Source: Fistulifera solaris
Lineage: Eukaryota
NCBI GenBank assembly: GCA_030295235.1
Contig: AP026149.1
Coordinates: forward strand, 682,001 to 746,000
Reading direction: 5' to 3'
DNA length: 64,000 nucleotides
Shown here: piece after piece, positions 47,740 through 62,672 of the stretch
How positions within the stretch are numbered: the first letter of the stretch is position 1
How the letters are laid out: each line of letters starts with the position of its first letter
Notes under the pieces: model-generated
The model's database searches: none
Told to the model about the DNA's origin: nothing
What the model saw: only the letters and a program-made list of their open reading frames with translations
Program-made: the position numbers and the translations under genes

Positions 47740-48198
47740 TCTAATTGAATCCGATGATGTGTTGCAGCACCCACAACATGACGAAATTTTGTGGTTTTGA
47801 TGGGCGAAAGCTATGCACTTCCGGTTTCATGGTACTTGATTTGTTTGTTTGAGTAGCTATTTACTTTCTATTTTTTCAAAATTGTCGAGTAATAGCCAGT
47901 ATAACCAGTGACCACGCCCCCGGCCTAAAGACCACGCACGGAAGATGCTCAAGCTGTAAAGGAATCAGGAACACGGAGAAAAAAATAGATATGTCCTCGT
48001 TTCGTACTTGTACATGCACTTTTTAATCAAAAAGTATTTAGCTAGGTTTTTACGATTATGACAGGTGGCTTGCTGAGATTCGAGAGAGAAATGGAAAATC
48101 TGAGTTTTAAAGCAATGATATAGTAGTTTTCTGGCGTCGGGTTTGAACAAAAGCAAACAACAACAGCGGAGGAATAATAGAGGCTTCAAGACTTGTTC

Positions 48199-50784
48199 CT
48201 AAATACCATCATCATCGTCAACGTCTCCGTTGCTCACCCCTGCAACAACATCCTGCTGATAATACATCTCAAGTATTTGGTCGCTAGTGGTAGCATCCTC
48301 GGGACGCTTGTCTTCGCGGATTCGTTCAAAACGCGGGAATCGTAACCCAATGCCACGACCCGCCTCTCCTGTCTTACCAACTGCGCCACGATGCGCAGAA
48401 GATTTGGATAAGTCTGCTGCTTTAACTTCCCACACTTGTACGGCATCGAACCAGACATCGCACTCCAATTGATCTGTCACATTGTACTGTGACGTTTTAG
48501 CAGGAATGACGTGCTGATTCAAACTATCTGCCAAACCCTTCAAGTCCTCTTCGGAAAATCCTGTTCCAATCTTGCAAACGCTTTGAAACTCTTCCGTATC
48601 GGCGTCATAGCAGGCTAACAAGTACGCCCCGTACACACCCGTGCGTTTACCGCGACCATGATAAGCCCCCAAAGGCACCAAGTCAACGCTATCTCCCAAA
48701 CCTTCCAGATAGTCCTTTTTGAGTTTCAACCAATTTAACGAACGCCTAGATGGTTCATAGACGTCATCCATTGTTTTCACCATCAGTCCTTCGCAACAGC
48801 CCTTCACCGCTAGGTCCAAGAACTCCTCAAGAATTGTCGTATCTCCATCTTCTTTGTGATCCAAGTATGTAGCGTACTGAAACTTTTCCGGAATGGGCAA
48901 GAAGTGTTCTTGCAACAACTGACGGCGCGTTTCCAACGACTCAGACAACAGCGATCGTCCGTTCAAGTACATGAGATCAAAAGCATGAACGATGATTTGT
49001 ACCTTTGCTGATTCGGCCGAAGCTTCTGTCTTTTGCGGGTCGATAAAATCTGAAAGGGCACCAATTTCCCGTCTTTAAAGGCGACCACTTCGGCATCCAT
49101 AACGTACGATGTGACATTGCTCTGTTGCGCGGCTTTGACAAACACCGGTACTTCGGGATACTTTTCCGATGTGTCCTGTCGAACAGCAAGAAGTTAAGAA
49201 AAGTGAATCAAGACTGCCCAATTAAAAAATGTCCAATGAATCACACAATCTTCACACACGTACCAACAGGTTACGGCTAAAGACCTTGGTCGTGCCGTCT
49301 TCCAACAAGTGAATTTGCGCTCGTTCTCCATCGTACTTGTATTCGCAGGTGAACTTCTGTCCATTCAAACGCTGCAATACTTCTTGAATCGATTTGGTGG
49401 GTTTTGCCAACATGGGTGCCACGGGAATGCCGGGCGTCAAAGTACAAGCTTGATACATGGCAGTGAGAGGAACCCGCAAGGCCGCATCCAACAAGGCATC
49501 GTAGGAAGGAACTTCCGAATACGCGCGTTTGATGATTTGCACCGCGCCTTCCAGTCGCTTCTCAATGGTCTGTTGTTTGTCAAGGTACTGTACGACTTCG
49601 GCGGGGTAATTTGTTTTCGTTTGATTTTCCGCGTTTTCGGATTCCCGATGATACGCGGTTAATGCTAACGCATGTGCCAACGAAATCAGGACTGTCGATT
49701 GTGCCAATCCAATGCGCAATTTCCCTTGCAATCCCCGCACAATGTACTTCATTTCCAATGGGTCTTGACACTTGACGAGCAACATCTTAATCTTATCCAC
49801 TTTCCATTTCTGTGACTGATTGCCCTTGGTTTGCGCAATTTCTCGAAACGTCTGCAAGACCAAGTTGGCCGTCAGTGGCGCTTTGGGTGTCTTGGCGGCA
49901 AAGAATCCTCCCAAGGTAGTTTGTTTGGACTTGCACTGCTGTGCAACAGTCCCCAGATCACCCGCTTGTTCGTACAATTGCTTGACGCGATTGCTTCCGA
50001 CGGCTTCCGCCACTGCCTTGATCAAGAGCGAGTCCCCAATGCCCAATTCGACATTCTCACACGCCGGCGCGACGGAATTAGATGTCAAGTAGAGTGCGGT
50101 ATACAAATCATGCGGTGCTAACAAGAGAATGGAGCGAAAGAGCTTGGTGAGCAATTGTTGAATTTGCAGACGAGCAGTAATGGCTTCAATCTCGGCCAGT
50201 GTTTGACAGAGCACCGCGTAAGGGAGCGTCTGTGACCAAGACGCCGACTCAATTAACTGTTTGTCAGAGGGAAACTGTCCTTTTGGGGCGGCGCGAAACA
50301 AATCGGTGGGAGGAAGAGGTACGAGGCTGGTCGATGGCTTGACAATTGCCGCAGTCTCTTTCGATGGCGTGGTAAGAGATGTAGATACTGCTACTGTAGC
50401 TGCTTCCTTTATTGCAACTTTTGTCTCTTTCGTTAGTCCCTTATCCTTGGACTTGCTATCGTTGTTGTCACTCTCTACCTTCTTGAGCTTCTTCTCATCA
50501 CTCTCGTTCGACAATCGTTGTTTGCTTTGCTTGCCGTTTATCTGTTTTGTTAAAGGCAATTCTGTATCATTCATTTGAATAGCTTCAGCGTCTTCTTTTT
50601 CGTCTTTGTCATCTTCATCATCATCGAGAATGGCACGACGTTTGCGATTTCCCTTGTTTTGTTTTTCCGTTGCCTTGGGATCGTCGAACGAACTGACATT
50701 TTTGTTGTTTTCCGTATTCTCTTTGACGACTTTGAGTCCGAAAAATGCATCTAAATTGTATTGACGATTCTGTTTGCTGCTCAT
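48199..50784 (-). CDS. LIG1: DNA ligase I (intron 49176-49263; frameshift at 49031-49034)
   Basis: ELGIGDSLL, LQGKLRIGLA, PMLAKPT, CEYKYDGERAQIH (adenylated Lys), FDLMYLNG, EGLMVK, WLKLKKDYL, CKIGTGFS, LRFPRF..REDK. Confidence 0.97.
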
Positions 50785-51094
50785 TTCAAGAGACTATTAC
50801 AGGAAGAGAAAGGTTTTATTACAATCAACGAGAGCAATGCGATCAGGCTTCTCTGGCAATTATTATTTGCGTTGTCGTTCTCGCTCGGCTTGTGTCGTTT
50901 GTTTGACGCGCGGCATGTTTCCTTCGTCGAGATCGCAAGGTGGAGGGAAGCCGCAAAAGAATCGTCTTGGCCGGCGTCTCTCAACGGATAATTTTTTTAC
51001 TGAAAAAAGAATGAATGAAGCATCGGCGCGCTTTCGCGCTTTCCCCATCGCACTACCGTATGACTATCACTAGGAGTGTAGGCGGCGGCAGTTA

Positions 51095-51120
51095 AGTCAT
51101 GAGTCGTCAGTCATGAGTCA
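51095..51120. promoter_or_regulatory. Paired AGTCATGAGT motif in the divergent LIG1/glycosyltransferase intergenic region (candidate TF site)
   Basis: Exact copies at 51095-51104 and 51109-51118; the same 10-mer recurs upstream of other genes. Confidence 0.45.
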
Positions 51121-51599
51121 AGATCTAAGATCCATGTTTGCCCAAGATGCTTTCGTTACACTATTTTTCTCCTAATAACGCATTCGAGTTGTGATGAAAA
51201 AAAAACTGTAACACCACCTAAACTTGCAGACGCTTGCGAAAATAGCCAAATAATACGCGGTAGGCTTACGTAGGCAGTTTAGCTTTGCTGTCAACTACGG
51301 AGTACTACGTAATATGCAAGATATACTCTCTAGCACATGACTAGATTTCAGTCACGACACGGGAAATCGCACTGCAAAATAAAATGAACTGACAAGCAAT
51401 ACCGTAGCAATATCAATAGCAGTCCTTCTTCCAATAATTGCTGCTGTTTTCGAATCGTCTGTTTCTTTCGAAACTATTTCTAATGAGAGAAATGTACCGT
51501 TAACCGGGATAACTAAACAAAAAGAGCTTTACGGGTAGTCTTGTTGAGTATTCTTGCCTCACAATTCGCCTCTACGACATCCAGAGCCTTTCCTTCACC

Positions 51600-52877
51600 A
51601 TGCGTCGACGTCAACTGCCTTATTTTCTCCTTCAGTTCCTCTTTTTATCTTGTCTTCTTTTCTATTTGCTATCAGTTACGATACTATGGATGCTACAGGA
51701 TGATTCCGCAGCCATTATGCCGAACGAAACGTTTTTCTCGTCATCTTCTCGACACTCCCTAGCAGCACAGCCAGTCTATGTATTCTTATCTAGAGTCCCT
51801 CTTTACACTAATAACAACCTCACAAAGCCATTCTGTGTCGATTGGCATCATAATGTGGATGAATGGTGGTCGCATCATCCTACTTGGGAACTAGCACTGC
51901 AAAATACAACGCATCAATGTTTTCAACCCATACCGAATACACAACAAGCGCAACTTTATCAACAATTGTATCAGTTGCAGCAGCAACCACACCACAATCA
52001 TACAACAACTTGTCGCACGAAAATCATTTCCAATTCGGGTTGGGGCGTCGATTTGTCTTACGTGGTTGATGGCTTGCTCTATGCGTTACATCACGAAATA
52101 CCCGTCTTTCTGAAATGGCAGGGTCCTTGGCAATATGCACCAACCTCGTGCTCATCCCAAGATGCGCGTTGTCTGTTTCTACCCTTTTCCGCTCCGCCCT
52201 GTCGAGAGCAACCACCCGAACAACAAGCACGATACTGGCAAACTCCGTGGTCCGGTTATTCGAATCCACAAACACGATGGGTGTTGCAATATGTAACACG
52301 CGGCCAAACATGGTTGCGGCAACAGGCCATCCAGTGGGTAGACAGTGTATCGTTGCCGGACTCGTGCGATCTGGCAATTCATGTCCGACGGGCCGATGTC
52401 ATTTTGCACGGAGCATTCAGTCGACGATATCACAAACTAAGAGAATACGTGCAAGCCTATCTTGACGCGATGGGCAGCGATCAAACGACACCTCGTCATG
52501 TTCTCATATTGACAGACGACGCCAATGCCATTGGAGAAGCCCTGCAGTATACCCAACGCACCCATTTGCCGTGGCAGTGGTATTACTTTGATCGACCGCG
52601 GTTTCGAGGACCCGAGGGTGGTTGGGAAAATGCCATTCCATCGCAGGATCCGGCTATGGAAGTGGCCATTCTTTACGCATCGTTGCAGTTACTACAACGC
52701 TGTGCGGTATTAGTTCATTCGAAAAGCAATGTGGCCGATTATTTCTTTGCGATTATGCAGCTGGCGGCGGGCGATCATGTTCGACGTGTTAACTTGGATG
52801 CGAATCGGCCACACAATGAAGTTCACAATTCACTCAATGCCGAAACAGTACGATACTCGCGTGCGTTTGATGTGTGA
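51600..52877 (+). CDS. Type II membrane glycosyltransferase, GT23/FUT8 (alpha-1,6-fucosyltransferase)-like
   Basis: N-terminal TM anchor; SGWG; AIHVRRAD (cf. HVRRTD), ILTDD, VHSKSNV corresponding to fucosyltransferase motifs I-III. Confidence 0.7.
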   Translation: MRRRQLPYFLLQFLFLSCLLFYLLSVTILWMLQDDSAAIMPNETFFSSSSRHSLAAQPVYVFLSRVPLYTNNNLTKPFCVDWHHNVDEWWSHHPTWELALQNTTHQCFQPIPNTQQAQLYQQLYQLQQQPHHNHTTTCRTKIISNSGWGVDLSYVVDGLLYALHHEIPVFLKWQGPWQYAPTSCSSQDARCLFLPFSAPPCREQPPEQQARYWQTPWSGYSNPQTRWVLQYVTRGQTWLRQQAIQWVDSVSLPDSCDLAIHVRRADVILHGAFSRRYHKLREYVQAYLDAMGSDQTTPRHVLILTDDANAIGEALQYTQRTHLPWQWYYFDRPRFRGPEGGWENAIPSQDPAMEVAILYASLQLLQRCAVLVHSKSNVADYFFAIMQLAAGDHVRRVNLDANRPHNEVHNSLNAETVRYSRAFDV

Positions 52878-52927
52878 ACGTTAGTTCCGTTAGAAAGTGA
52901 CTACGACAACTTTGCAAATATGCTCGA

Positions 52928-55723
52928 TTAAAACCAATAATTAACACTGATCGAGGGCGTCAACGACCGGACGTAATGCCACATACGCGCGGGAATGTAC
53001 AATCCATCTCCTGGATGCAAAACCACCTCAGTATACGATGCCGTTTGGGCTAACGGATGTTGTTGCCAGTCTTCGTTTTCGCAATGCAAAGCGCTCATAT
53101 TGCCTTGTGCCGCCGTACCGCGCGTTGTCTTGGAGATGACGTACAGCTTTGCCTGTTCCTCGGCTGGATACAGTCGCACGTACTTCACCCCAACCACTTG
53201 TACCAACCAATTGTCGTAGCTGTCATAATGAAGTGGCGTACGGGTACCGGCACTGCCGAGCCACACATTCGTGTGCGTCGGTCCCTGTGTTCCACATAAA
53301 GGAGGACTCACATCGACAAATTCTTTCAAGGCGGGAATCTGTTCCAGCAAAGGGTGCTGCGCCAAATAAATAGTAGAAGCGCTGTATTGCTGGGCCTCTT
53401 GCAAACTCCAAACTGGATTTTCGACTTTCTCATCGGCAGCTCGAATCGCATGTATCAAATTTCGTAAGGAGAGAATTTCTTCCCGCATGCGTCCACAGTC
53501 TTCAGTTGCAAGCATCGAACCCCGTTCCACAGGAATTTGTCTGTGTCCATGAATTTGGCCAAAGACTCCTTCCAAGTCATGCCAAGCAGTGACGGCGGTC
53601 CAATCACAGGCGAACTTGCGCAATACCAAGGGACGCGAGACTAGGACATGATTCGTCGAAAATGTACGGTAAAAAGGTGGTTCATGGAGTTCGTCAGGTA
53701 GAGGATATTGAATTGGATGCGACAAACCGTGCTGTTCGATCCGTTGTTTCACAGTGGGGTCCGCATAGTTGGGAAGGAGAATATTACAAGGAAGCATAAC
53801 AGGTAATTCTGAAATTGAGTAAGCGTGATGCTCGACGTACGCCATAAATCCGGTCAAGTGAGGATCGTTCCTCACGGGCAAGCCTAGAACCATGCCCCGA
53901 TCTAAAAAGTCCAATGCATCGAGAAAACACCATCGATGAGCTAATCCCAAGGCTGCGACGACCACAGCACACCAATAAGCATTCCGATAAGCTTCATTAG
54001 GCCATGCATTTGTAGACTCCAACGACGAATACAAGATAGATACTAAATCACTTCCCAACAACTCCATGAGAGCGAAATCCTTCTGTTCGATTCCTTGCAC
54101 GCATTTTTGAAACAGTGTCACAAGCTCAATTGGTAGCAAGCCACTATGTTTTTGATCGTGGACCCAAATGTTAACAAAGCTCGATGCTTTGGCAAATAAC
54201 GGGAGCGGTGTAGCGCCATACACTACGTGATTACGGATAGAGTCGAGGCGTTCGAGACAAGCTTGTAGCTTTTGTTCTGAGTCTTCCTCATCAGTGTCAG
54301 CTGGCGTCTGTATATCATTATCGTCTTCCTCATCATCTCCGTCTTGTCCAAACAAGTCACCCTTGTCGTCGTTGTCCTCTCGGGCTGAAAATTTTGATTC
54401 TTCACCTTCTTGTTCTTTGGTACACTTCGAGCACGTACAGACAAATCCGTAATTGACCAGCGCTTGCTGACGTTCTTCACATGATTTGTTTGAATGTTCA
54501 ATATAAGATATGGTCAATTCTTCGCCTTCTTGAATATCTTTGATAGCCAGTGCAAATATTGTGAGCGGTCGCTGCCACGACGGATTGCTGTGGTAAACAA
54601 GGAGTACATTGGGATCGCACGAATGATTCATTTTGCAGGCCGTCGCGTACATTGCCGTCCCATCGAGAGGAGGGAAAATCTGATCCAAATCATCCCCTTC
54701 TGGCGCGGTCATGGAAGGTGCGTCGTCTGAAGGCGTTTCAGTGGCTACGTCTGTGACCATGCCGTCTTCTCTAATATATAATTCCGAAAGAAACTTGGCA
54801 ATCTCATCCACGGAATAATCCCAGTCTCTGTCAATCATAGCTAATTTGGCAGTAACCTCTTGCTCGTCATCTTCGTCCGCGCAATCGGTGTCACAATCAT
54901 CGCCGCCGATGAACCCGGCTTCTGCAAGGCATTGCACTATATTCGAATGATACATTTCTCGAAAATCTCGATCAAAGACCTCCCGACAAAGCGGATGACG
55001 CTGTCTGACACCAATGGCATTCTGTTCACACGCTCCTACGCGTTTGGCAATGTCTAACGCTGTAATCAGAGGAATCGTATGATTGTGTTCCGTCATCTGC
55101 AAGACTTGATTCAACAAATCGGCAGCGTCTTGACACAGATTTCGGATCGATTGATTCAAAGTGGCTGTTTCGGCAAAAGCCCCTGGTTGATGTTTCAATT
55201 CGAGAGTCGCGACTTCCCACCATGGTTTCATGCAGAAATCGTTCCACTTGGATTCTGTGCGTTCCCCTGATGATATCTGATGATGTTCTAAGATCCACCA
55301 CTGTGCAATCAACAAGAGAATCTCGTTGCTTTCGACGGCTAGTTGTTTAAATAACACCAAAGGATGTTCTTCATCATCGGCTATATTCCCTGTACACAAA
55401 AAGCGATGATGCATTCGCCAAGCAGCGTCTTCACAATCTTTGTTGCAATAGACGTAGCCACACTTTTGCCGACAAGATGCAATTATGGTTTTGCAAGCAG
55501 CTAACGACTTGGAAGGAAAGCGATGCTGCATAGCGTCGGCAGCATTACCCACAAAGCCATGACACGAATGACAGACCCACGCTTGCTGCGTATTCAATCC
55601 TAAACTCTGCTGAAAGAGCATCGGACGTTCACAAAAGATCAAATTATGACGAGACAAATCATATCGAGCTCGTAAATGTCGACCTTGTTGTTCGTTGCAA
55701 CAAATATCATACAGAGTGGTCAT
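52928..55723 (-). CDS. SET/MYND (SMYD-like) lysine methyltransferase fused to JMJD5/KDM8-like JmjC dioxygenase
   Basis: Single 931-aa ORF: GRHLRA..IFCERP, MYND Cys/His (CHSC..C..C.YVYC..C..W..HH..LC), NHSCDPN, GEELTISY, YGFVCTCSKC; then LDRGMVLG, YLAQH.L.EQIP.L, TPLHYDSYDN, GVKYVRLY, WHYVRSL..SISVNYWF. Confidence 0.93.
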   Translation of the reverse strand: MTTLYDICCNEQQGRHLRARYDLSRHNLIFCERPMLFQQSLGLNTQQAWVCHSCHGFVGNAADAMQHRFPSKSLAACKTIIASCRQKCGYVYCNKDCEDAAWRMHHRFLCTGNIADDEEHPLVLFKQLAVESNEILLLIAQWWILEHHQISSGERTESKWNDFCMKPWWEVATLELKHQPGAFAETATLNQSIRNLCQDAADLLNQVLQMTEHNHTIPLITALDIAKRVGACEQNAIGVRQRHPLCREVFDRDFREMYHSNIVQCLAEAGFIGGDDCDTDCADEDDEQEVTAKLAMIDRDWDYSVDEIAKFLSELYIREDGMVTDVATETPSDDAPSMTAPEGDDLDQIFPPLDGTAMYATACKMNHSCDPNVLLVYHSNPSWQRPLTIFALAIKDIQEGEELTISYIEHSNKSCEERQQALVNYGFVCTCSKCTKEQEGEESKFSAREDNDDKGDLFGQDGDDEEDDNDIQTPADTDEEDSEQKLQACLERLDSIRNHVVYGATPLPLFAKASSFVNIWVHDQKHSGLLPIELVTLFQKCVQGIEQKDFALMELLGSDLVSILYSSLESTNAWPNEAYRNAYWCAVVVAALGLAHRWCFLDALDFLDRGMVLGLPVRNDPHLTGFMAYVEHHAYSISELPVMLPCNILLPNYADPTVKQRIEQHGLSHPIQYPLPDELHEPPFYRTFSTNHVLVSRPLVLRKFACDWTAVTAWHDLEGVFGQIHGHRQIPVERGSMLATEDCGRMREEILSLRNLIHAIRAADEKVENPVWSLQEAQQYSASTIYLAQHPLLEQIPALKEFVDVSPPLCGTQGPTHTNVWLGSAGTRTPLHYDSYDNWLVQVVGVKYVRLYPAEEQAKLYVISKTTRGTAAQGNMSALHCENEDWQQHPLAQTASYTEVVLHPGDGLYIPARMWHYVRSLTPSISVNYWF

Positions 55724-56562
55724 TCTCTTCGTTTTTCTTCTATATTATAAGAAAAGAGTGGAGTCGGAACAACTTTAAAGATAAAGGAAGCGCTCTAAAC
55801 AAAAGAACAACAGTAACAACTAAACAACAGAAACGAAAATGGTTGGCTTTCGGACCTCGGCTATTATTATACCTGGTACTACTACCAGGACTAAATCTGT
55901 TGAGGAGTCATAAAAAAATATTATTCCTAAGGTTGCCTACTATTTGTATTATGGTGAGTCCATTGGAACGAACCTAATACATCTCATTTCGAAAAAAAAA
56001 CCATCAGCGACGACAGCATCGGTCAACATCAATCATGGCATCTCTAGCTCACAGGGAACAGGGAGTGCTTATGGTCTATGCTTTAGGCTTTTGATTGGCT
56101 TCGAAAAGCCGCGAACGCAGAATGATTTGCTCCATCACATTGTCTTTAAAACATTTTCCGGGACTGACGTTTTTTTGATTCACAAAATGTCATTCCTGAT
56201 GACTGATGACTGATGATTCTTAATTCGTAACCTTATTCTGTTACTTGGTATCGTTTCATTATACTTCGATTCAAAAGCGCATCTCGCAACGCAATAATAA
56301 CTTATTCGCATCATGTTTATTACATTCTTTGTTTTGTTTGATCATAAATACTGCAAATATTGGACGCGGGGAATATGTTTTGCAGAACTGACTCCCACTT
56401 TCGTGAAAGCATAACTCTCAAGGATAAAAAAAGACACACAATATATTCAGGCCGTCCGTACAACCAATCATTTGAAAGACTAGTTGGCTAGTTGAGAAAG
56501 TACTTAGGAATACAACATACGTTTATGATGACATGGTGAAATTACTGGCACCTAACCGTCCT

Positions 56563-58650
56563 TCACTGACATAAAAGATGAGATTCACGGGGTCGAATTG
56601 GATGGCAAAGTTCTAATCCTACGTCCGAATAGGAGGGAATGCTGGGACGGCGTTGGGGTTTGCGGGGCGACACATCCGTCACCGTTTCTATCAAAGTTTT
56701 GGCGGCCTCACGTGCGTTTTGTAATTTTCGAACCATGGTTGTCATCTCAAAATCGGTAACTGGAGGTTCCGCAAAACTGATGGTCTTTTCCACTTTGGGC
56801 TTTTTCTTCTTCTTTGTGCTTCTTCTTCTTATCCTTTTTCGACTTTTTGTCCTTTTTGGATGACGAACTGCTTTTTCTTTTCAGTGACTTTTTCTCCTTT
56901 TCTTCTTTCGACGATTCTTTCTTCTTTTCCTTATCTTCCTTATTCTTCTTCTCCGCCTTTTCTTCGTCTTTAATCTTCTTGTCCTTCTTACCCTTCCCCG
57001 CCTTTTCTTCTTCTTTAATCTTCTTGTCCTTCTTATCCTTCTCCGCCTTTTCTTCTTCTTTAATCTTCTTGTCCTTCTTATCCTTCTTCGACTTGTCTTT
57101 ATCTTTCTTGCTGTGCTTTCGCTCCACCTTCTTCGTATCACGCGACTCTTTCGAATCATTGGAACTACTACTGCTGCTGAGGCCAATAGGGACGCGTTTG
57201 ATGGAAGGGAGTCGGCGTAGCGTAGGTAAGTCGAAAAGCGGCAAATCATCATATTTAGGAAGAAGTAACTCGGGAAACGGTCTTCTTCGATGTCTTCGGT
57301 TTTTGATTCGCCAATCATTCCGTCATCGCCACAGTCCGGGGCATCACTTGTGGGAGGGAGAGACCATGTGAAATGCAAACCTTGCGGACGGTTGCAGATC
57401 CTCACAGGTTCCGGCTTTTCTTCCACCACGGTACGCGACAAGCTTTTGTGCAGTTGATCTTGCAGACGACCGAACCGAATCTTGGGTTTTGATACCTGGA
57501 GCGGTACCAATGGAGCCGATGACCGCGCTACTTCCTTTCGAACGGTTTCGGAAAAGGTAGTTGGGAATTCCATGTCCATGGGTACTTCGAGACTCTTGCA
57601 CTTGTACTCTTGCTTGCAAGCAGCAATTAGCTTGGCGTACTTTTCCGATTGCATGTAATCTTCTGGGAGGTCTACCGCAACATAAACACTTCGAACCACA
57701 GATCGTCGTCGACTCAGTTGTTCGAGTGGGAGGCCAGCGGAAGTCATGGACGATGGTGTATGTACCCGGACAACAGTATCTTCTTTATCTGCTGTCTTGT
57801 CTTTTCCACTTGAAACTTGAATCGTTGCCCGTCTGCGTTCAAGAGCATCGTTTTCAAGCCCTTCTTTGTATGCGTTCGCAGCCATTTTCATCTTCTGCTC
57901 CTTTGCTTGTTGCAGGAAATGCGCTCGATGCGACTTCTTTACTTTGTCACGCAATGATCCAAGTAGCCCTAGTGACTTTCCCGTTTTCTTTTGAAACATA
58001 TCGAACATTTCATCTACGTCTTCAACTTTTGCTTCGACATCGATTTCGCTCGCGACGGTTTTCTCCTCTCTAGATCGCTTTTTCTGTCCAAATCTGCCTC
58101 CGACTTTGGAGACAAGTTTCTTTGGATATTGCAGGCTCGTTGTGCATGTTTTCATCATTTCAAAGAGTCGCGCTTTGGTCTTGATATAATTGGTATTGTT
58201 TCTCTTGGAAGATGAGTCAGAGATCGACTTTTGTGGAGAGTTTCTTTGTGTAGACTCAAAAATGCTGACTCGATCTTGAATGGAACTTCTCATCAATTGA
58301 CGAGACGAGCGACGGATCGTGTTAGGCCTCCTGTGGACGTCGTCTTCTTCGGTATCACTATCGTCGCAGATTTCGATAAGTTCTTCATTTTCTTCGGCTG
58401 ACACGGACATTGAAATCGCGAGCCGCGATCGCTCTTGCGAAGACGATTCAAAGAAGGATGTTCGCTGTCTAACCAATGGAGAGAGACGAGGCGAAAGACT
58501 TTTTCGCTCCATCGAGGAGTCATCATTGTAATTGTACGTAAGGGTTTGCTCACTTGTTTTACCTAGCAGTACTGGTGCAGTTTCCTGCCCAGCCTTGTTT
58601 GTGTGTAATGGACGAGACACTGGACTGAAAGGGCTTTCCGATGAGCACAT
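56563..58650 (-). CDS. Low-complexity Ser/Lys/Glu-rich protein of unknown function; probable frameshifts ~57272 and ~56815
   Basis: Long ORF from 58650 continues after single-base corrections into a KDKKDKKIKEEEKAE repeat region and KTISFAEPP...; no recognisable domain. Confidence 0.6.
56951..57085 (-). repeat. Coding tandem repeat, 3 x 45 bp (KDKKDKKIKEEEKAE-type units)
   Basis: Three near-identical 45-bp units visible in the C/T-rich plus strand. Confidence 0.85.
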
Positions 58651-60265
58651 TGTTGTTAGTAATGCTTCCGTGCTATTCTCTGCAAGGATTAGTTGCTGTG
58701 CTTACAATGGCTTGCCTGTAAGTTTGCTTTATTTGTTTTTCCACTTGTGGACTTGTGTGGCGACGAGGGTCAGGAAAACCTTTGCAAATGGAAAACGGAA
58801 GGCGCAAAAAGAGAACCAGGTGGAAGACGGATGTCACGTGACAAATTTCTTCTTTAACCCACGCAAAGGGCAATATGGAGAAACGAACACCAGAAGAACA
58901 CTACTTTGTTAAAATGACTTGCTACAACTGATAGGGCCTGCGAATCATTCTATGGAATCATATGGGGAACATATGACTCAATTTCACGTTCCGAGTTCCG
59001 ATGTTCCGATGTTTCGTATTCAATCTTACTTTTATGTGTGATGTGGGACGTTGAAGTCGCCTTCTTTCTGCTCTTGAAGTAAAATGAGGTCTATAAGTCT
59101 TTAAGCCTTCATTTTTTGCCCATAATTTGAAATCGTGGAAAGACTTTTGAATGAATGCAAACAGTTCGTTAGAAAATGAAATTTGAGTATCCTCTATGTA
59201 GTAATTTCTTGGTCTTTCGAATGTTGACCAATCAAAACTTTTCAATGATCCTTGCGTTACTCACGTTCGCAGTAGGGAAGATGAGATGATGCTGCTTCAT
59301 TCGTCACTACTTGGACCTTGGACCTGGACCTGGACCTGGTATTACGATGTTGATATTCGTAAAATCCAAATATCGATATTTGTCGAACTATAGAAATGAC
59401 CGCTTTAATCTCTCAGTAATGTTGTAATTTGTAATGGCGTACCTTGCATCGTATGTAGGATCGTACCAGGTACGTTTGTGCAGTGTGCCGTCGATTGTTG
59501 AAGGAGGAGAGAGGAGACGAATTTGAGTTTTGGCATCCATGCATTCAAGTTTGATTTTGGGGAGAGAAGGTCTTTGACAGTTCGCGAAATGGCCATTGGA
59601 TTACTTATAATAGATTTTTGAGGCTTAGCTTATGCTTACGACTCTCCATGTGATAGAGAAAAGCGATAAAGACGAGGTCATATCAAACGCTTTAAGAGTG
59701 ATGAAACCAAACCATTGTTCTTTATCCGTCGGAACACCACGCTTCAAAACCGTTCGCGCTACGAGGATCATTACTCGACATATCTTAGCCATCGAACTCC
59801 TACTCATCCTGATTTGGTGACACAGTAGATAATTTAAATATTTGTTACCTGCATTTAGTGTCCGCTTCCAGCTGATGTTTCATGCTCTCGCTGGAGTTGC
59901 GAGTGGCTTTTATCGAAGTAAACGACGAAGAGAGATACCAACTGGATTTGCACAAAAACATTTAGAACGAAAACGCCGAAGGATCGTTTGGGGCTTGCAA
60001 GTTAAAAGGTAGGACCTTTTGCATTCAAAGAAAGCTCTTCAATCGCTACAGTTGTGTTTACGACAACAACCATGGAGAGAGGAATAGCAATCCATAGGTG
60101 ATTCTGCCCTATTCTCTTCGTCTCGTCTGACAAAGCAGTTACTCGCCCCTAAAAGGTAAAATCAAAGCATAAATGCCCAAAGTTGGCATTGAGTAAACTT
60201 CAAAGTGTAAATCCTAGATTCACTGATATATGTACATCTTAAGAGCCAAAGGAAAAGCAATGTTC

Positions 60266-61012
60266 CTAGCTTCGCCTTTTCCGAGCATATGGTGAATGAT
60301 TCAAACAAAAGCAAATGAAAAAGCCCAGAGCGAAAACCGCCGTCAAAACAATTGATGAAATAAATACGGCAAAGATCGGTGTCGAGGAGTCGGATGACAC
60401 CGAAGGTAGATCGCCTCTGAATTCGTTATCTTCGGGCGCCGATTCCATAACCGGTTCCGATGGCGAGGCCGGCCCGATATCCCTTTCTGGCTTGGTAGGA
60501 GGCGCTGTAGACGGTGTTATAGAAGCAAACTCCATAGGGATGTCGTCGCTTTGTGGGTCCAAGGCAAATACATAAATAGCCATGCCAGCAATCGCCAGAC
60601 AAGAGAGGAACGCACATGTCATCGACATTCGAAGCATCCACTTCGTATAGCCAGGTGTTTCTATTAACTTTCCTTCGATCAAGGGTGCGTTGAAGATTTC
60701 CAACATTTTGGCTTCTCGGGCTTCATCTACAGGGACAGCGAGCGCTTCGGGAGTTGCAATCTCGATGTCGGCGGTTGTCGGACTTGATGGATTTTCCTCA
60801 TCGACTTGTACGTGACACGATGTCTCGTCAGTTTGTTGTAGATCTAAATCCTCCTTGGCTAGCGCGAAGTCGTCGAACTGGATTGTTGCGGCTTCATTGT
60901 TAGTCAGGCCAACGTGATGAGATAACTCAGGCGTTTGATCATTGTGGACTACGCTTTGTTGCTTTTCAGAGGGAGCTGCGAATTGTTTAGTAGCTTTCTC
61001 TCTTGCTGACAT
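60266..61012 (-). CDS. Uncharacterised two-TM protein with Pro/Ser/Thr-rich loop (paralog A)
   Basis: AVPVDEAREAKMLEIFNAP..TCAFLSCLAIAGMAIYVF, TPSTAPPT loop, second TM and basic tail. Confidence 0.75.
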   Translation of the reverse strand: MSAREKATKQFAAPSEKQQSVVHNDQTPELSHHVGLTNNEAATIQFDDFALAKEDLDLQQTDETSCHVQVDEENPSSPTTADIEIATPEALAVPVDEAREAKMLEIFNAPLIEGKLIETPGYTKWMLRMSMTCAFLSCLAIAGMAIYVFALDPQSDDIPMEFASITPSTAPPTKPERDIGPASPSEPVMESAPEDNEFRGDLPSVSSDSSTPIFAVFISSIVLTAVFALGFFICFCLNHSPYARKRRS

Positions 61013-61568
61013 AACGTCAAGTGAAACCTCTATTTAAAAGGGCATACGAAGATAATGTTGACTGACAAATTTATCGGAGTAAATTTATGCGAAAGATCGT
61101 GCGAAAAGGCAAATGCTTTCGTTGTTGACCATCGCATGGCGGCAAAGCTGGGCGGCAGCATGCAGGATGCAAGCTCATTGTTCCCAAACGTGCACCTACG
61201 AGACTGTAGAGATAAGAGCAGCACGCCTGTCCCCATTCGGAAGCATGAAATATCTGTTCCAAATGAATACTTTGTATGCAGTAGCGAATTGTCACTGTAA
61301 CTTCTGTATAGGACAGGGAGTAAAAGACACGACACACACAAAAAACCCTCCACCCTCAGCACCGAAGCGACAGGGAAACGGCAAGCTCTAGGGAGATAGA
61401 CCGATACCAATAGCCGTAGTCCGTAGGTGACCTTAGGAAGCTGAAAGACAAAAATGCCCCTCTTCTCTCATCAACGGAACCGTACCGACATGTATATTTC
61501 CGATCATCAGTGAAACCAGAACAATACTTAGCGCGTGCACTTTGAAGAACCGGAACACCAAACACCGA

Positions 61569-62672
61569 CTACTTGTCGACGGTGTGCGGTAATCCTTGTG
61601 CTCTCTTCCGGATTTGCCAGTGTGCGACAAATGCGCTTATCGCCACGACGGCACTGAGGGTAATCAAGGTGGAAATGAAACCCATGGCAAGAGTCGAAGG
61701 CTGCGATGTAGATGTGTCCAGAGTATCATCCTGCTTGGGAAGAGACGTTGGTGGAGCGGTAGGCTCCTTCTTTCCGGTAGCTATTGTCGGCGGTAACGTA
61801 GTTCTTCCATTAGGTACCATGACGGTCCCAACAGGTGCTGAATCCGCCATTTCGGACTGCGGAGGTAATACAGGAGGAACGGTTTCGTTACCCACGGCTA
61901 TGAAGGTGGAACTAATCGGGGCGGGCGCCATGTCACTTTCCGGGTCAACGTAGAGTGTCGGAAAAAACGTAGAAGACGTCAAAGTCGAGACCGCGGATGG
62001 AGACAATGTCGGAGCCGGAGTTGGAATCGGTTGCACCTCATTCGGTTTGACGACAAACACAAAGACCGCCATTCCAGCAATGCCCATGAGCGACAAGAAC
62101 GTACAAGTGAGCGAAATGGGCAAAAGATACCGTGCATATTTGGGAGCAGACACCGCTTCTCCTTGCACGACAGGTGCGTGTAGAATCTCTAACAATTTTG
62201 CTTCCTGTTGCTCATCGACAGGTTCCGCTTGTATATCGGGAGGCAACATGTACGTTTCTTTGCTTAGGACAGGATCCACATCGTCGCTATTCCCTGCTTC
62301 CACAGTGCAAGCACTACTCCTGTTCGAGTGAAGACTTACAGTCCCCAATTCTTCGACGGATGGAGGTCTTTCTTCGTCATGTTGTTGCTCCTCATTATCA
62401 TCTTCTTCATCGCTTTCTTCCAAATCCCAGGCATCCTCTTCTTGTTGCTCCGCAGTCATGACGCGACTCCCAATCATATGCACTGCACCCGGTTGAGAAG
62501 GCAATTCTTCTCCATCCGGAAAAACATCGACACGAGAAGGCTTAATATCCGAATGACTTTCGTGCTGTGATTGTTGTTGATGCTGTTGCTTCAAACAACA
62601 CGATGATGGTATGCCTGCATGAACCGTCAGTGTTCCTTGTTGATGATTGTTTGTTTCAGGTGCAGTTGTCAT
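61569..62672 (-). CDS. Uncharacterised two-TM protein with Pro/Thr-rich loop (paralog B)
   Basis: QPGAVHM motif, AEPVDEQQEAKLLEILHAP..TCTFLSLMGIAGMAVFVF, PTPAPTLSPS/PTAPPT repeats, second TM; ATG at 62672. Confidence 0.78.
   Translation of the reverse strand: MTTAPETNNHQQGTLTVHAGIPSSCCLKQQHQQQSQHESHSDIKPSRVDVFPDGEELPSQPGAVHMIGSRVMTAEQQEEDAWDLEESDEEDDNEEQQHDEERPPSVEELGTVSLHSNRSSACTVEAGNSDDVDPVLSKETYMLPPDIQAEPVDEQQEAKLLEILHAPVVQGEAVSAPKYARYLLPISLTCTFLSLMGIAGMAVFVFVVKPNEVQPIPTPAPTLSPSAVSTLTSSTFFPTLYVDPESDMAPAPISSTFIAVGNETVPPVLPPQSEMADSAPVGTVMVPNGRTTLPPTIATGKKEPTAPPTSLPKQDDTLDTSTSQPSTLAMGFISTLITLSAVVAISAFVAHWQIRKRAQGLPHTVDK

Follow-up and report, generated by a model that had tools for sequence, protein, structure and literature searches.

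A single open reading frame (ORF) on the minus strand of the genome of the diatom Fistulifera solaris, at positions 52928..55723 of a 64,000-nucleotide stretch of contig AP026149.1 (682,001 to 746,000; this whole stretch is referred to below as the window), raises the question of whether one diatom gene joins two protein-modifying enzymes, a methyltransferase resembling SMYD5 and an oxygenase of the JMJD5 type, and what they might do together. An earlier note, made from the DNA letters, had singled out this frame as such a fusion. Based on comparisons of sequences and predicted folds, we consider it probable (about 0.7) that this single diatom gene encodes a bifunctional protein comprising a SMYD5-like methylase and a complete JMJD5-type oxygenase.

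The fused frame is a genuine single gene. It forms one ATG-to-stop ORF of 931 residues (stop codon at 52928-52930), with 0 internal stops or frameshifts in the ORF listing of the window and no intron in the F. solaris genome, in agreement with the uninterrupted frame described earlier; by our own estimate, the chance of a frame staying open for this length is ~(61/64)^931, roughly 1e-19. The identical 931-residue sequence is present in NCBI, UniRef, and EukProt, and the representative of its 90% cluster, FisN_13Hh020, a 'hypothetical protein' of F. solaris, is 90% identical and the closest named protein. F. solaris is allodiploid, and the window gene is possibly the second homeologous copy. 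The motifs quoted in the earlier note (NHSCDPN, ELTISY, the post-SET cysteines, the acidic linker, LDRGMVLG, HxD...H, and KYVRL) were all located in the translation, and the domain search which it had proposed placed both SET and Cupin_8 above the Pfam cut-off. The parts of the gene, all on the minus strand, are listed below in the order of the protein, together with the evidence on which each assignment is based.

52928..55723, minus strand: whole ORF, 931 residues and stop (ORF listing and translation)
55583..55723, minus strand: N-terminal SET strands, residues 1-47, with GRHLRA at 14-19 (conservation, model, weak SMYD2 alignment)
55394..55573, minus strand: MYND-like two-zinc finger, residues 51-110 (eight invariant ligands)
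54914..55393, minus strand: SET-I helical region, residues 111-270 (predicted helices)
54674..54913, minus strand: acidic, poorly ordered insertion within SET, residues 271-350 (composition, low model confidence)
54401..54673, minus strand: C-terminal part of the SET core and post-SET, residues 351-441 (Pfam SET, SMYD3 alignment, invariance)
54224..54400, minus strand: acidic linker, residues 442-500, with a DLFG motif (composition, in-frame relatives)
53666..54223, minus strand: putative JMJD5/KDM8-type N-terminal helical (ARM-like) domain and connector, residues 501-686 (BLASTP, hhalign, model)
52931..53665, minus strand: predicted JmjC/Cupin_8 oxygenase, residues 687-931 (Pfam, PDB matches, conservation, fold)

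Residues 1-441 are predicted, from sequence matches and a structural model, to form a SMYD-type S-adenosylmethionine (SAM)-dependent lysine N-methyltransferase, in which an atypical MYND-like finger splits the SET domain and a post-SET zinc cluster follows. Pfam recognizes SET (PF00856) at residues 362-407 (E 4.8e-10, 40.2 bits versus a cut-off of 22.4), and residues 355-439 match SMYD3, SMYD1, and SMYD2 in a phmmer search of PDB sequences (E 9e-9 to 1e-6), with the C-terminal SET part aligning to SMYD3 192-268; when a profile of 19 stand-alone relatives is used against PDB, the SMYD match improves to ~1e-18. In SET proteins, NHSC is the SAM-binding motif and the tyrosine of ELxxxY is catalytic. 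The diatom protein carries NHSCDPN at residues 366-372 and ELTISY at 402-407, with Y407 in the catalytic position, followed by the post-SET motif C429-x-C431-xx-C434. N366, H367, C369, and Y407 align with the equivalent motifs of SMYD3, and each of these four residues, as well as C429, C431, and C434, is found in 89/89 rows of full-length fused relatives, a set that includes near-duplicates (5 from the 90% cluster of the window protein and 10 from the P0058 cluster) and underlies the counts out of 89 given here. At the N-terminus, the region of residues 1-47 aligns weakly to the SMYD2 N-terminus, and 78 of the fused rows carry G14 and R15, the remaining 11 having gaps.

The finger that splits the SET domain follows the pattern C-x2-C...C-x3-C-x4-C-x3-C-x8-H-x3-C, C54 and C84 being separated by an insertion of 29 residues. 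Its ligands (C51, C54, C84, C88, C93, C97, H106, and C110) are each conserved in all 89 rows, and it is because these eight Cys/His positions are invariant in fused relatives that we call the finger MYND-like. In Pfam scans of 44 fused relatives, zf-MYND appears below threshold in seven and MYND_ZMYND11 in two, and a Physarum homologue likewise matches zf-MYND below threshold (E 0.005). For the MYND finger proposed in the earlier note, there are thus eight invariant ligands on one side and, on the other, no zf-MYND match of this protein in Pfam at E<=1.

The two halves of the protein were folded separately (residues 1-445 and 500-931). The model of residues 1-445, built from a 33-sequence alignment, has a mean predicted local distance difference test score (pLDDT) of 84.9 and a predicted template-modelling score (pTM) of 0.83, with beta strands at residues 5-39 (pLDDT 89-97), helices at 121-268 (mostly >90), a dip to 60 at 71-80, and disorder limited to 277-293 and 323-341 (<50). 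The helical SET-I region (residues 111-270) shows a mean identity of 0.43 to 82 fused relatives, and the following insertion (residues 271-350) is acidic, with 26/80 residues D/E. A Foldseek search with the N-terminal half returned SMYD2 as the best match (E 4e-11, template-modelling (TM) score 0.46-0.49), followed by SMYD3 and SMYD1.

Four hallmarks have been described for SMYD5, namely the lack of a tetratricopeptide repeat (TPR) domain, a C-terminal Glu-rich extension, a MYND insertion of ~30 residues, and an S-insertion (PMC13362160). The diatom protein matches all four in kind: it has no TPR-like domain, as its post-SET region runs directly into the acidic linker and then into KDM8-type helices; the 29 residues between C54 and C84, with their dip in pLDDT, resemble the M-insertion; and the acidic, low-pLDDT residues 271-350 resemble the S-insertion, the likeness to the two human insertions being one of kind and not of alignment. 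In the alignment consensus, stand-alone ochrophyte orthologues stop a few residues past the post-SET region. A language-model similarity search pointed to a feature look-alike cluster named 'SMYD5 isoform X1 family' (score 0.96), which we treat as a lead only. No SMYD5 chain was present among the PDB sequence or fold matches shown, and sequence searches returned no named SMYD5. On these features only, we describe the N-terminal half as SMYD5-like and do not call it SMYD5; the subfamily assignment, made by eye in the earlier note, has thus gained four architectural features and is backed by features only.

The linker between the two halves (residues 442-500) contains 22 D/E and 6 K/R among its 59 residues, and relatives sharing 90% and 76% identity keep the reading frame open across it. 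At ~60 residues, it is probably a disordered tether. It carries the DLFG motif (window 54340-54352; region of residues 458-461), in which F458 and G459 are each conserved in at least 90% of 77 sequences and which may be a docking motif.

Residues ~501-931 appear to constitute a complete JMJD5/KDM8-type Fe(II)/2-oxoglutarate (2OG) oxygenase, with a predicted ARM-like domain followed by a JmjC barrel. Pfam assigns Cupin_8 to residues 687-931 (E 8.6e-41, 140.9 bits versus a cut-off of 27.4) and also reports JmjC_2 (E 1.1e-10). Among PDB sequences, the strongest match of residues 655-931 is to human JMJD5 (6f4n, E 5.5e-32; about 30-32% identity over the catalytic domain), with weaker matches to FIH (2e-11), TYW5 (C2orf60; 4.1e-7), and JMJD7 (4.5e-6). 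The same ranking is led by human JMJD5 at the level of fold, occupying all of the top 21 rows listed by Foldseek for the C-terminal half (E 1.4e-19, TMt 0.83-0.89), with JMJD7, TYW5, and FIH ranked after it; both searches agree with the JMJD5 assignment made from the letters.

The likeness extends beyond the catalytic domain. BLASTP aligned query residues 465-931 to P0186, a stand-alone homologue of 473 residues (E 1e-53), and hhalign aligned the profile of the fused family to P0214 over query residues 559-931 (probability 100, E 1.3e-50), a region that includes the ARM_KDM8_N match of P0214 (39.2 bits versus a cut-off of 27). Residues 501-686 do not belong to the SMYD part, and on these alignments a whole JMJD5, more than its catalytic domain, seems to have been fused. 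ARM_KDM8_N is also found below threshold in 6 of the 44 fused relatives scanned. The model of residues 500-931 (41 sequences; pLDDT 92.1, pTM 0.90) shows six long helices at 507-638 (pLDDT >90) and then the barrel. LDRGMVLG (about residues 607-614), which had been taken for a JMJD5-like N-terminal helix, lies in the stretch that matches the KDM8-like ARM domain in the hhalign comparison with P0214.

In human JMJD5, the iron ligands are H321, D323, and H400, the 2OG-binding residues are N327, K336, Y272, S318, W310, L329, and V402, and the substrate arginine is contacted by E238 and Y243, the Y243A variant being inactive on Arg substrates (PMC5862942). In the 6f4n alignment, H321/D323/H400/N327/K336/Y272 correspond to H832/D834/H916/N838/K847/Y786 of the diatom protein and S318/W310/L329/V402/E238/Y243 to T829/W821/L840/V918/E733/L738, leaving two mismatches among these key residues, Thr for S318 and Leu for Y243. 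The iron triad is thus H832/D834/H916, and K847 lies in KYVRL. Conservation among the fused rows is high at H832 (87), D834 (88), H916 (88), K847 (85), N838 (86), W821 (86), Y786 (84), and E733 (86). Taken together with the SET motifs, these near-invariant key residues agree with the earlier description of both catalytic sites as intact.

How widely is the fusion distributed? A family search found 165 relatives, of which 120 were listed, and an exhaustive search returned 10758 proteins at E<=1e-3, among them 234 with E<=1e-30. Among the matches listed, most relatives of about 900-1100 residues have both Pfam domains, and fused proteins are named from the raphid pennates Fistulifera, Mayamaea, Seminavis, Epithemia, Nitzschia, Pseudo-nitzschia, Amphora, and Cylindrotheca. 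SET and Cupin_8 were both above cut-off in 44/44 fused relatives scanned with Pfam. Mean identity over the 82 rows that are not close relatives of the window protein is 0.57 for the C-terminal SET part and post-SET, 0.50 for JmjC, 0.31 for the helical domain, and 0.29 for the linker. In a metagenome scan, tblastn matches were found in 32 of 33 loci, with both halves on one strand in 23.

The fusion is also found outside the pennates. Leptocylindrus is an early-branching centric diatom, and MMETSP is a transcriptome project. The 90% cluster of the fused protein P0101 holds two Leptocylindrus aporus EukProt peptides with MMETSP0322 labels and an MMETSP ORF of 973 residues labelled 'Transcript_... 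type:complete', all three with SET and Cupin_8. A fused message is therefore present in a centric diatom by transcript-derived evidence, and the comparison across diatoms suggested in the earlier note finds the fusion in raphid pennates and in the centric Leptocylindrus. As a separate observation, the relative P0052 (Nitzschia inconspicua, 1196 residues) is annotated with an extra N-terminal GNAT domain (Acetyltransf_3, residues 14-187, E 8e-15) before SET and JmjC, which could reflect either a genuine fusion of three domains or the merging of gene models.

A further group of relatives carries the SET half only, and 28 of them end at query residue 714-715. We considered whether such proteins mean that the fusion is absent in some diatoms, and rejected this on the basis of their ends and of the DNA at six loci. 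Among the 28 ends, 24 read ...WR, one ...WW, and one ...WT, and the remaining two continue RYV, corresponding to AG/GTATGT (the slash marks the exon boundary). At loci L001, L002, L003, L011, L013, and L016 (L001 and L002 are identical over the stretch shown), the first ORF stops at the same point and the JmjC part restarts 60-180 nt further on. The DNA in between reads TGG-CG/GTGAGT...CAG/ or TGG-AG/GTAAG...CAG/, a canonical phase-2 intron located in the codon after KW, in the N-terminal strand of JmjC; the window gene has no intron there. Many SET-only relatives in databases are artefacts of this unspliced conserved intron: gene callers stop at ...KWR, and databases therefore hold false 'SET domain' proteins and short separate JmjC ORFs.

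Stand-alone SET halves (~430-530 residues) occur in Chattonella, Mallomonas, Ochromonadaceae, Tribonema, Ectocarpus and other brown algae, Chrysoparadoxa, and Aureococcus, and also in Physarum. In a quick IQ-TREE analysis of 53 SET halves (28 fused, 25 stand-alone; rooted with bat SMYD3), the 28 fused rows form one clade (Shimodaira-Hasegawa-like approximate likelihood-ratio support, SH-aLRT, 96) with one change of state, which fits a single origin; the Leptocylindrus cluster branches first, then Attheya, then the pennates, and the divergent fused ORF at locus L027 is sister to the other fused rows. In the tree of JmjC halves (52 rows), one branch has all 20 fused rows on the same side, and the inner groups agree between both trees. 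The simplest reading, which we regard as probable, is that the two enzymes were fused once, at the base of diatoms or earlier. Loci L025-L029 (e.g., L027:140-3316) contain intronless fused SET+JmjC ORFs of about 1060-1080 residues at 23-39% identity; they might derive from a sister lineage of diatoms.

Several observations weigh against the reading of a SMYD5-like methylase joined to a complete JMJD5 by one ancient fusion. First, the likeness to the SMYD5 subfamily is one of architecture only, and the window protein gave no Pfam zf-MYND match at E<=1. Second, the window protein gave no match to the KDM8 N-terminal ARM domain (PF24472) in the Pfam scan. Third, no fused row has an aromatic residue in the column of JMJD5 Y243 (46 gaps, 19 L, 11 M, others), and the S318 equivalent is Thr in 88 of them. 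As no Y243 equivalent is found, the substrate pocket should differ from that of human JMJD5. The equivalent is also missing in 31/32 stand-alone homologues sampled, and Y243 may be a feature that defines animal JMJD5 only; its loss in the alignment warns against assuming arginine as the target residue. Fourth, 12 SET-only relatives (P0082, P0093, P0094, and nine more) end near query residues 631-644, past the helical domain, with variable tails, and locus L009 ends with 488 nt lacking a JmjC match; these 12 may result from an intron at another position or may be truly truncated forms. Finally, support for the monophyly of the fused JmjC halves is only 69, and the stand-alone P0188 lies in the basal polytomy.

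If both halves are active, the SET half would methylate lysine and the JmjC half would hydroxylate or demethylate its target. The acidic tracts could draw in a basic protein as substrate, a role reported for the Glu-rich tail of SMYD5, which is needed for histone-octamer binding (PMC13362160), and both activities might then act on one substrate or complex, placing a lysine methyl mark together with a hydroxyl mark, or removing the methyl group. Human SMYD5 is described as the trimethylase of eL40 K22 and as acting only weakly on histones in vitro. The in vitro targets of hydroxylation by human JMJD5 are eS6 R137 and RCCD1 R141 (PMC5862942). Because both human enzymes touch ribosomal proteins, a ribosomal or basic-protein target is slightly favoured, and by this analogy we weakly prefer ribosomal or other basic nuclear proteins to histones as the substrates.

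The most serious alternative places the protein on chromatin, as a writer and eraser of histone H3, for example at K36, in which SET would add a methyl group and JmjC would remove it at the same or a neighbouring residue. This is how the Phaeodactylum gene was read in 2011 (PMC3145265), and it would draw on the histone products listed for SMYD5 (H3K36me1/me3, H3K37me1, and H4K20me3) and the binding of its tail to histone octamers (PMC13362160), on the description of plant JMJD5/JMJ30 as a histone demethylase, and on the acidic tracts at residues 271-350 and 442-500, which would suit histone binding. However, SMYD5 has been reported to have weak or no histone activity in vitro, its deletion barely altering the marks (bioRxiv 10.1101/2024.10.10.616381), JMJD5 is presented as an arginyl C-3 hydroxylase (PMC5862942), the FIH/JMJD5 clade rarely or never shows fusion to chromatin domains (PMC2938197), and Pfam finds no chromo, PHD, Tudor, or other reader domain in the window protein. 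We regard the chromatin role as possible, with the odds clearly against it.

It is far less plausible that only one half is catalytically relevant, the other being a docking or regulatory module, such as a JmjC domain that senses Fe, 2OG, or O2, or a scaffold. Non-catalytic roles of JMJD5 have been mentioned (PMC13226616), and a substrate loop unlike that of human JMJD5, lacking the Y243 equivalent, would suit such a role, but in both halves the residues of the metal, 2OG, and SAM sites are kept in 85-89 of the 89 fused rows, with few and isolated substituted rows, a retention that would be unexpected for a purely structural module. That two adjacent genes were read as one frame, or that the locus gives two mRNAs or proteins, is close to refuted, since even with an assembly that single-nucleotide differences from reads in a neighbouring gene reveal as imperfect, the frame is open through 931 codons, no read differences are listed at the linker or domain boundaries, the linker is in frame in the relatives named above, and the fusion recurs in every scanned relative and in transcript-derived peptides.

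Thus, the bifunctional SMYD5-like and JMJD5-type protein remains the reading we prefer. If it is correct, the protein would be a candidate diatom link between the availability of Fe, 2OG, and O2 and protein methylation. Lasting fusions of two enzymes usually signal a functional link, and the diatom fusion was kept through diversification with both sites intact. This persistence leads to a testable hypothesis that SMYD5-type methylation and JMJD5-type hydroxylation cooperate, which is of wider interest as the substrates of human SMYD5 and JMJD5 are still debated. A 'Rosetta stone' extension, in which SMYD5 and JMJD5, separate in animals and plants, work on the same substrate complex, is in our opinion doubtful; with the same reserve, the best-validated human substrates (eL40 K22 and eS6 R137) might by analogy point to the ribosome as that complex. 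Under this extension, one diatom polypeptide would couple SAM-dependent lysine methylation to Fe/2OG/O2-dependent hydroxylation, and translation, or chromatin at H3K36, would be linked to iron and oxygen status in iron-limited phytoplankton. A literature search found no paper linking SMYD5 with JMJD5, the eight papers that mention both, as far as their text was available, looking like broad surveys. Database annotation is corrected as well: many diatom entries called 'SET domain' proteins represent just the first exon of the fused gene, left unspliced.

A search for sequencing runs listed none of RNA for the window; read contigs from four runs (X1-X4, of a kind that was guessed) were compared with the window and were not used for or against a single transcript. 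Contigs of X1 cover all 30 bins of 48000-62000; those of X2-X4 cover some stretches only, including 53430-54081, 54277-54524, and 54777-55066 within the ORF. No joints were found in the read contigs of the four runs, no listed contig spans 54081-54277, and X1 also breaks at 54081. Within the ORF, the read differences comprise four single-letter ones at 54563-54614, in one X1 contig only, and no letter or length difference between the window and the four runs is listed in the linker or at the domain boundaries.

Downstream, a plus-strand ORF of 425 residues (51600-52877) runs towards the fused gene, the stop codons of the two lying only 50 bp apart. This ORF encodes a hydrophobic N-terminal segment and matches the catalytic domain of alpha-1,6-fucosyltransferase weakly, below the cut-off (E 3.5e-4). 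On the other side, an unusual repeat tail rich in K/R closes a minus-strand ORF of 589 residues (56881-58650). Single-base indels set the window apart from all four runs at 56801 and 57271, and from X1 at 56426 as well (region compared, 56400-58650); contigs of X2-X4 run on to about 56544. The window assembly probably contains frameshift errors at 56400-58650, and the true neighbouring gene would be longer or in another frame at its 3' end. Further away, an X4 contig has a run of 17 T before window position 60194, which could mark the poly(A) site of a minus-strand transcript from a gene at ~60200-62000.

Among known systems, the closest is the Phaeodactylum gene model bd1647, reported with SET and JmjC (Curr Genomics 2011; PMC3145265), where it appears in the 'SMYD' and 'SET+JmjC' rows with the function 'Unknown'. 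According to that paper, cDNA PCR (data not shown) confirmed a transcript with both domains; the fusion was 'not found' in Thalassiosira and Ectocarpus, and a dual methylase/demethylase activity on histones was proposed (PMC3145265). The architecture is therefore not new, having been in print since 2011, and the novelty implied in the earlier note does not hold for an arrangement that is also widespread in diatoms; what is new is the reading as a SMYD5-like enzyme with a full JMJD5, the diatom-wide spread, and the intron explanation. A literature search found no later paper on the SET+JmjC diatom fusion, most subscription journals being outside its coverage. Both bd1647 and the F. solaris gene place SET N-terminal to JmjC in one diatom protein, and we infer their orthology from the architecture and the diatom-wide family, not from the sequence of bd1647. 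The 2011 paper reads JmjC as a lysine demethylase, whereas we assign this half to JMJD5 and trace the family to a centric diatom.

The N-terminal half has its top sequence and fold matches in the solved structures of SMYD1-3, but these have a TPR-like C-terminal domain that the diatom protein lacks, the TM score to them is only 0.43-0.50, and the sequence alignment is significant only over the C-terminal SET part and post-SET. Compared by description (PMC13362160), human SMYD5 shares the split SET, a finger with a long insert (MYND in SMYD5, MYND-like in the diatom protein), a second insertion in the SET region, the lack of TPR, and an acidic tract right after post-SET; in contrast, the diatom tract is mixed D/E and leads into a second enzyme. 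The C-terminal half resembles human JMJD5/KDM8 and plant JMJ30 in its predicted ARM-like N-terminal domain and JmjC barrel. H321/D323/H400, N327, K336, Y272, W310, and E238 of human JMJD5 are all matched, whereas the diatom form is fused to a methyltransferase, has no Y243 equivalent, and carries Thr in place of S318. Among fusions of the FIH/JMJD5 clade, in which chromatin-domain partners are rare or absent, the only JMJD5-enzyme fusion named is the nematode JMJD5-acetyltransferase, C. elegans C06H2.3 (PMC2938197). There, JMJD5 is likewise joined to a protein-modifying enzyme, the partner being a GNAT acetyltransferase and not SET, an arrangement echoed by the GNAT, SET, and JmjC domains annotated in P0052.

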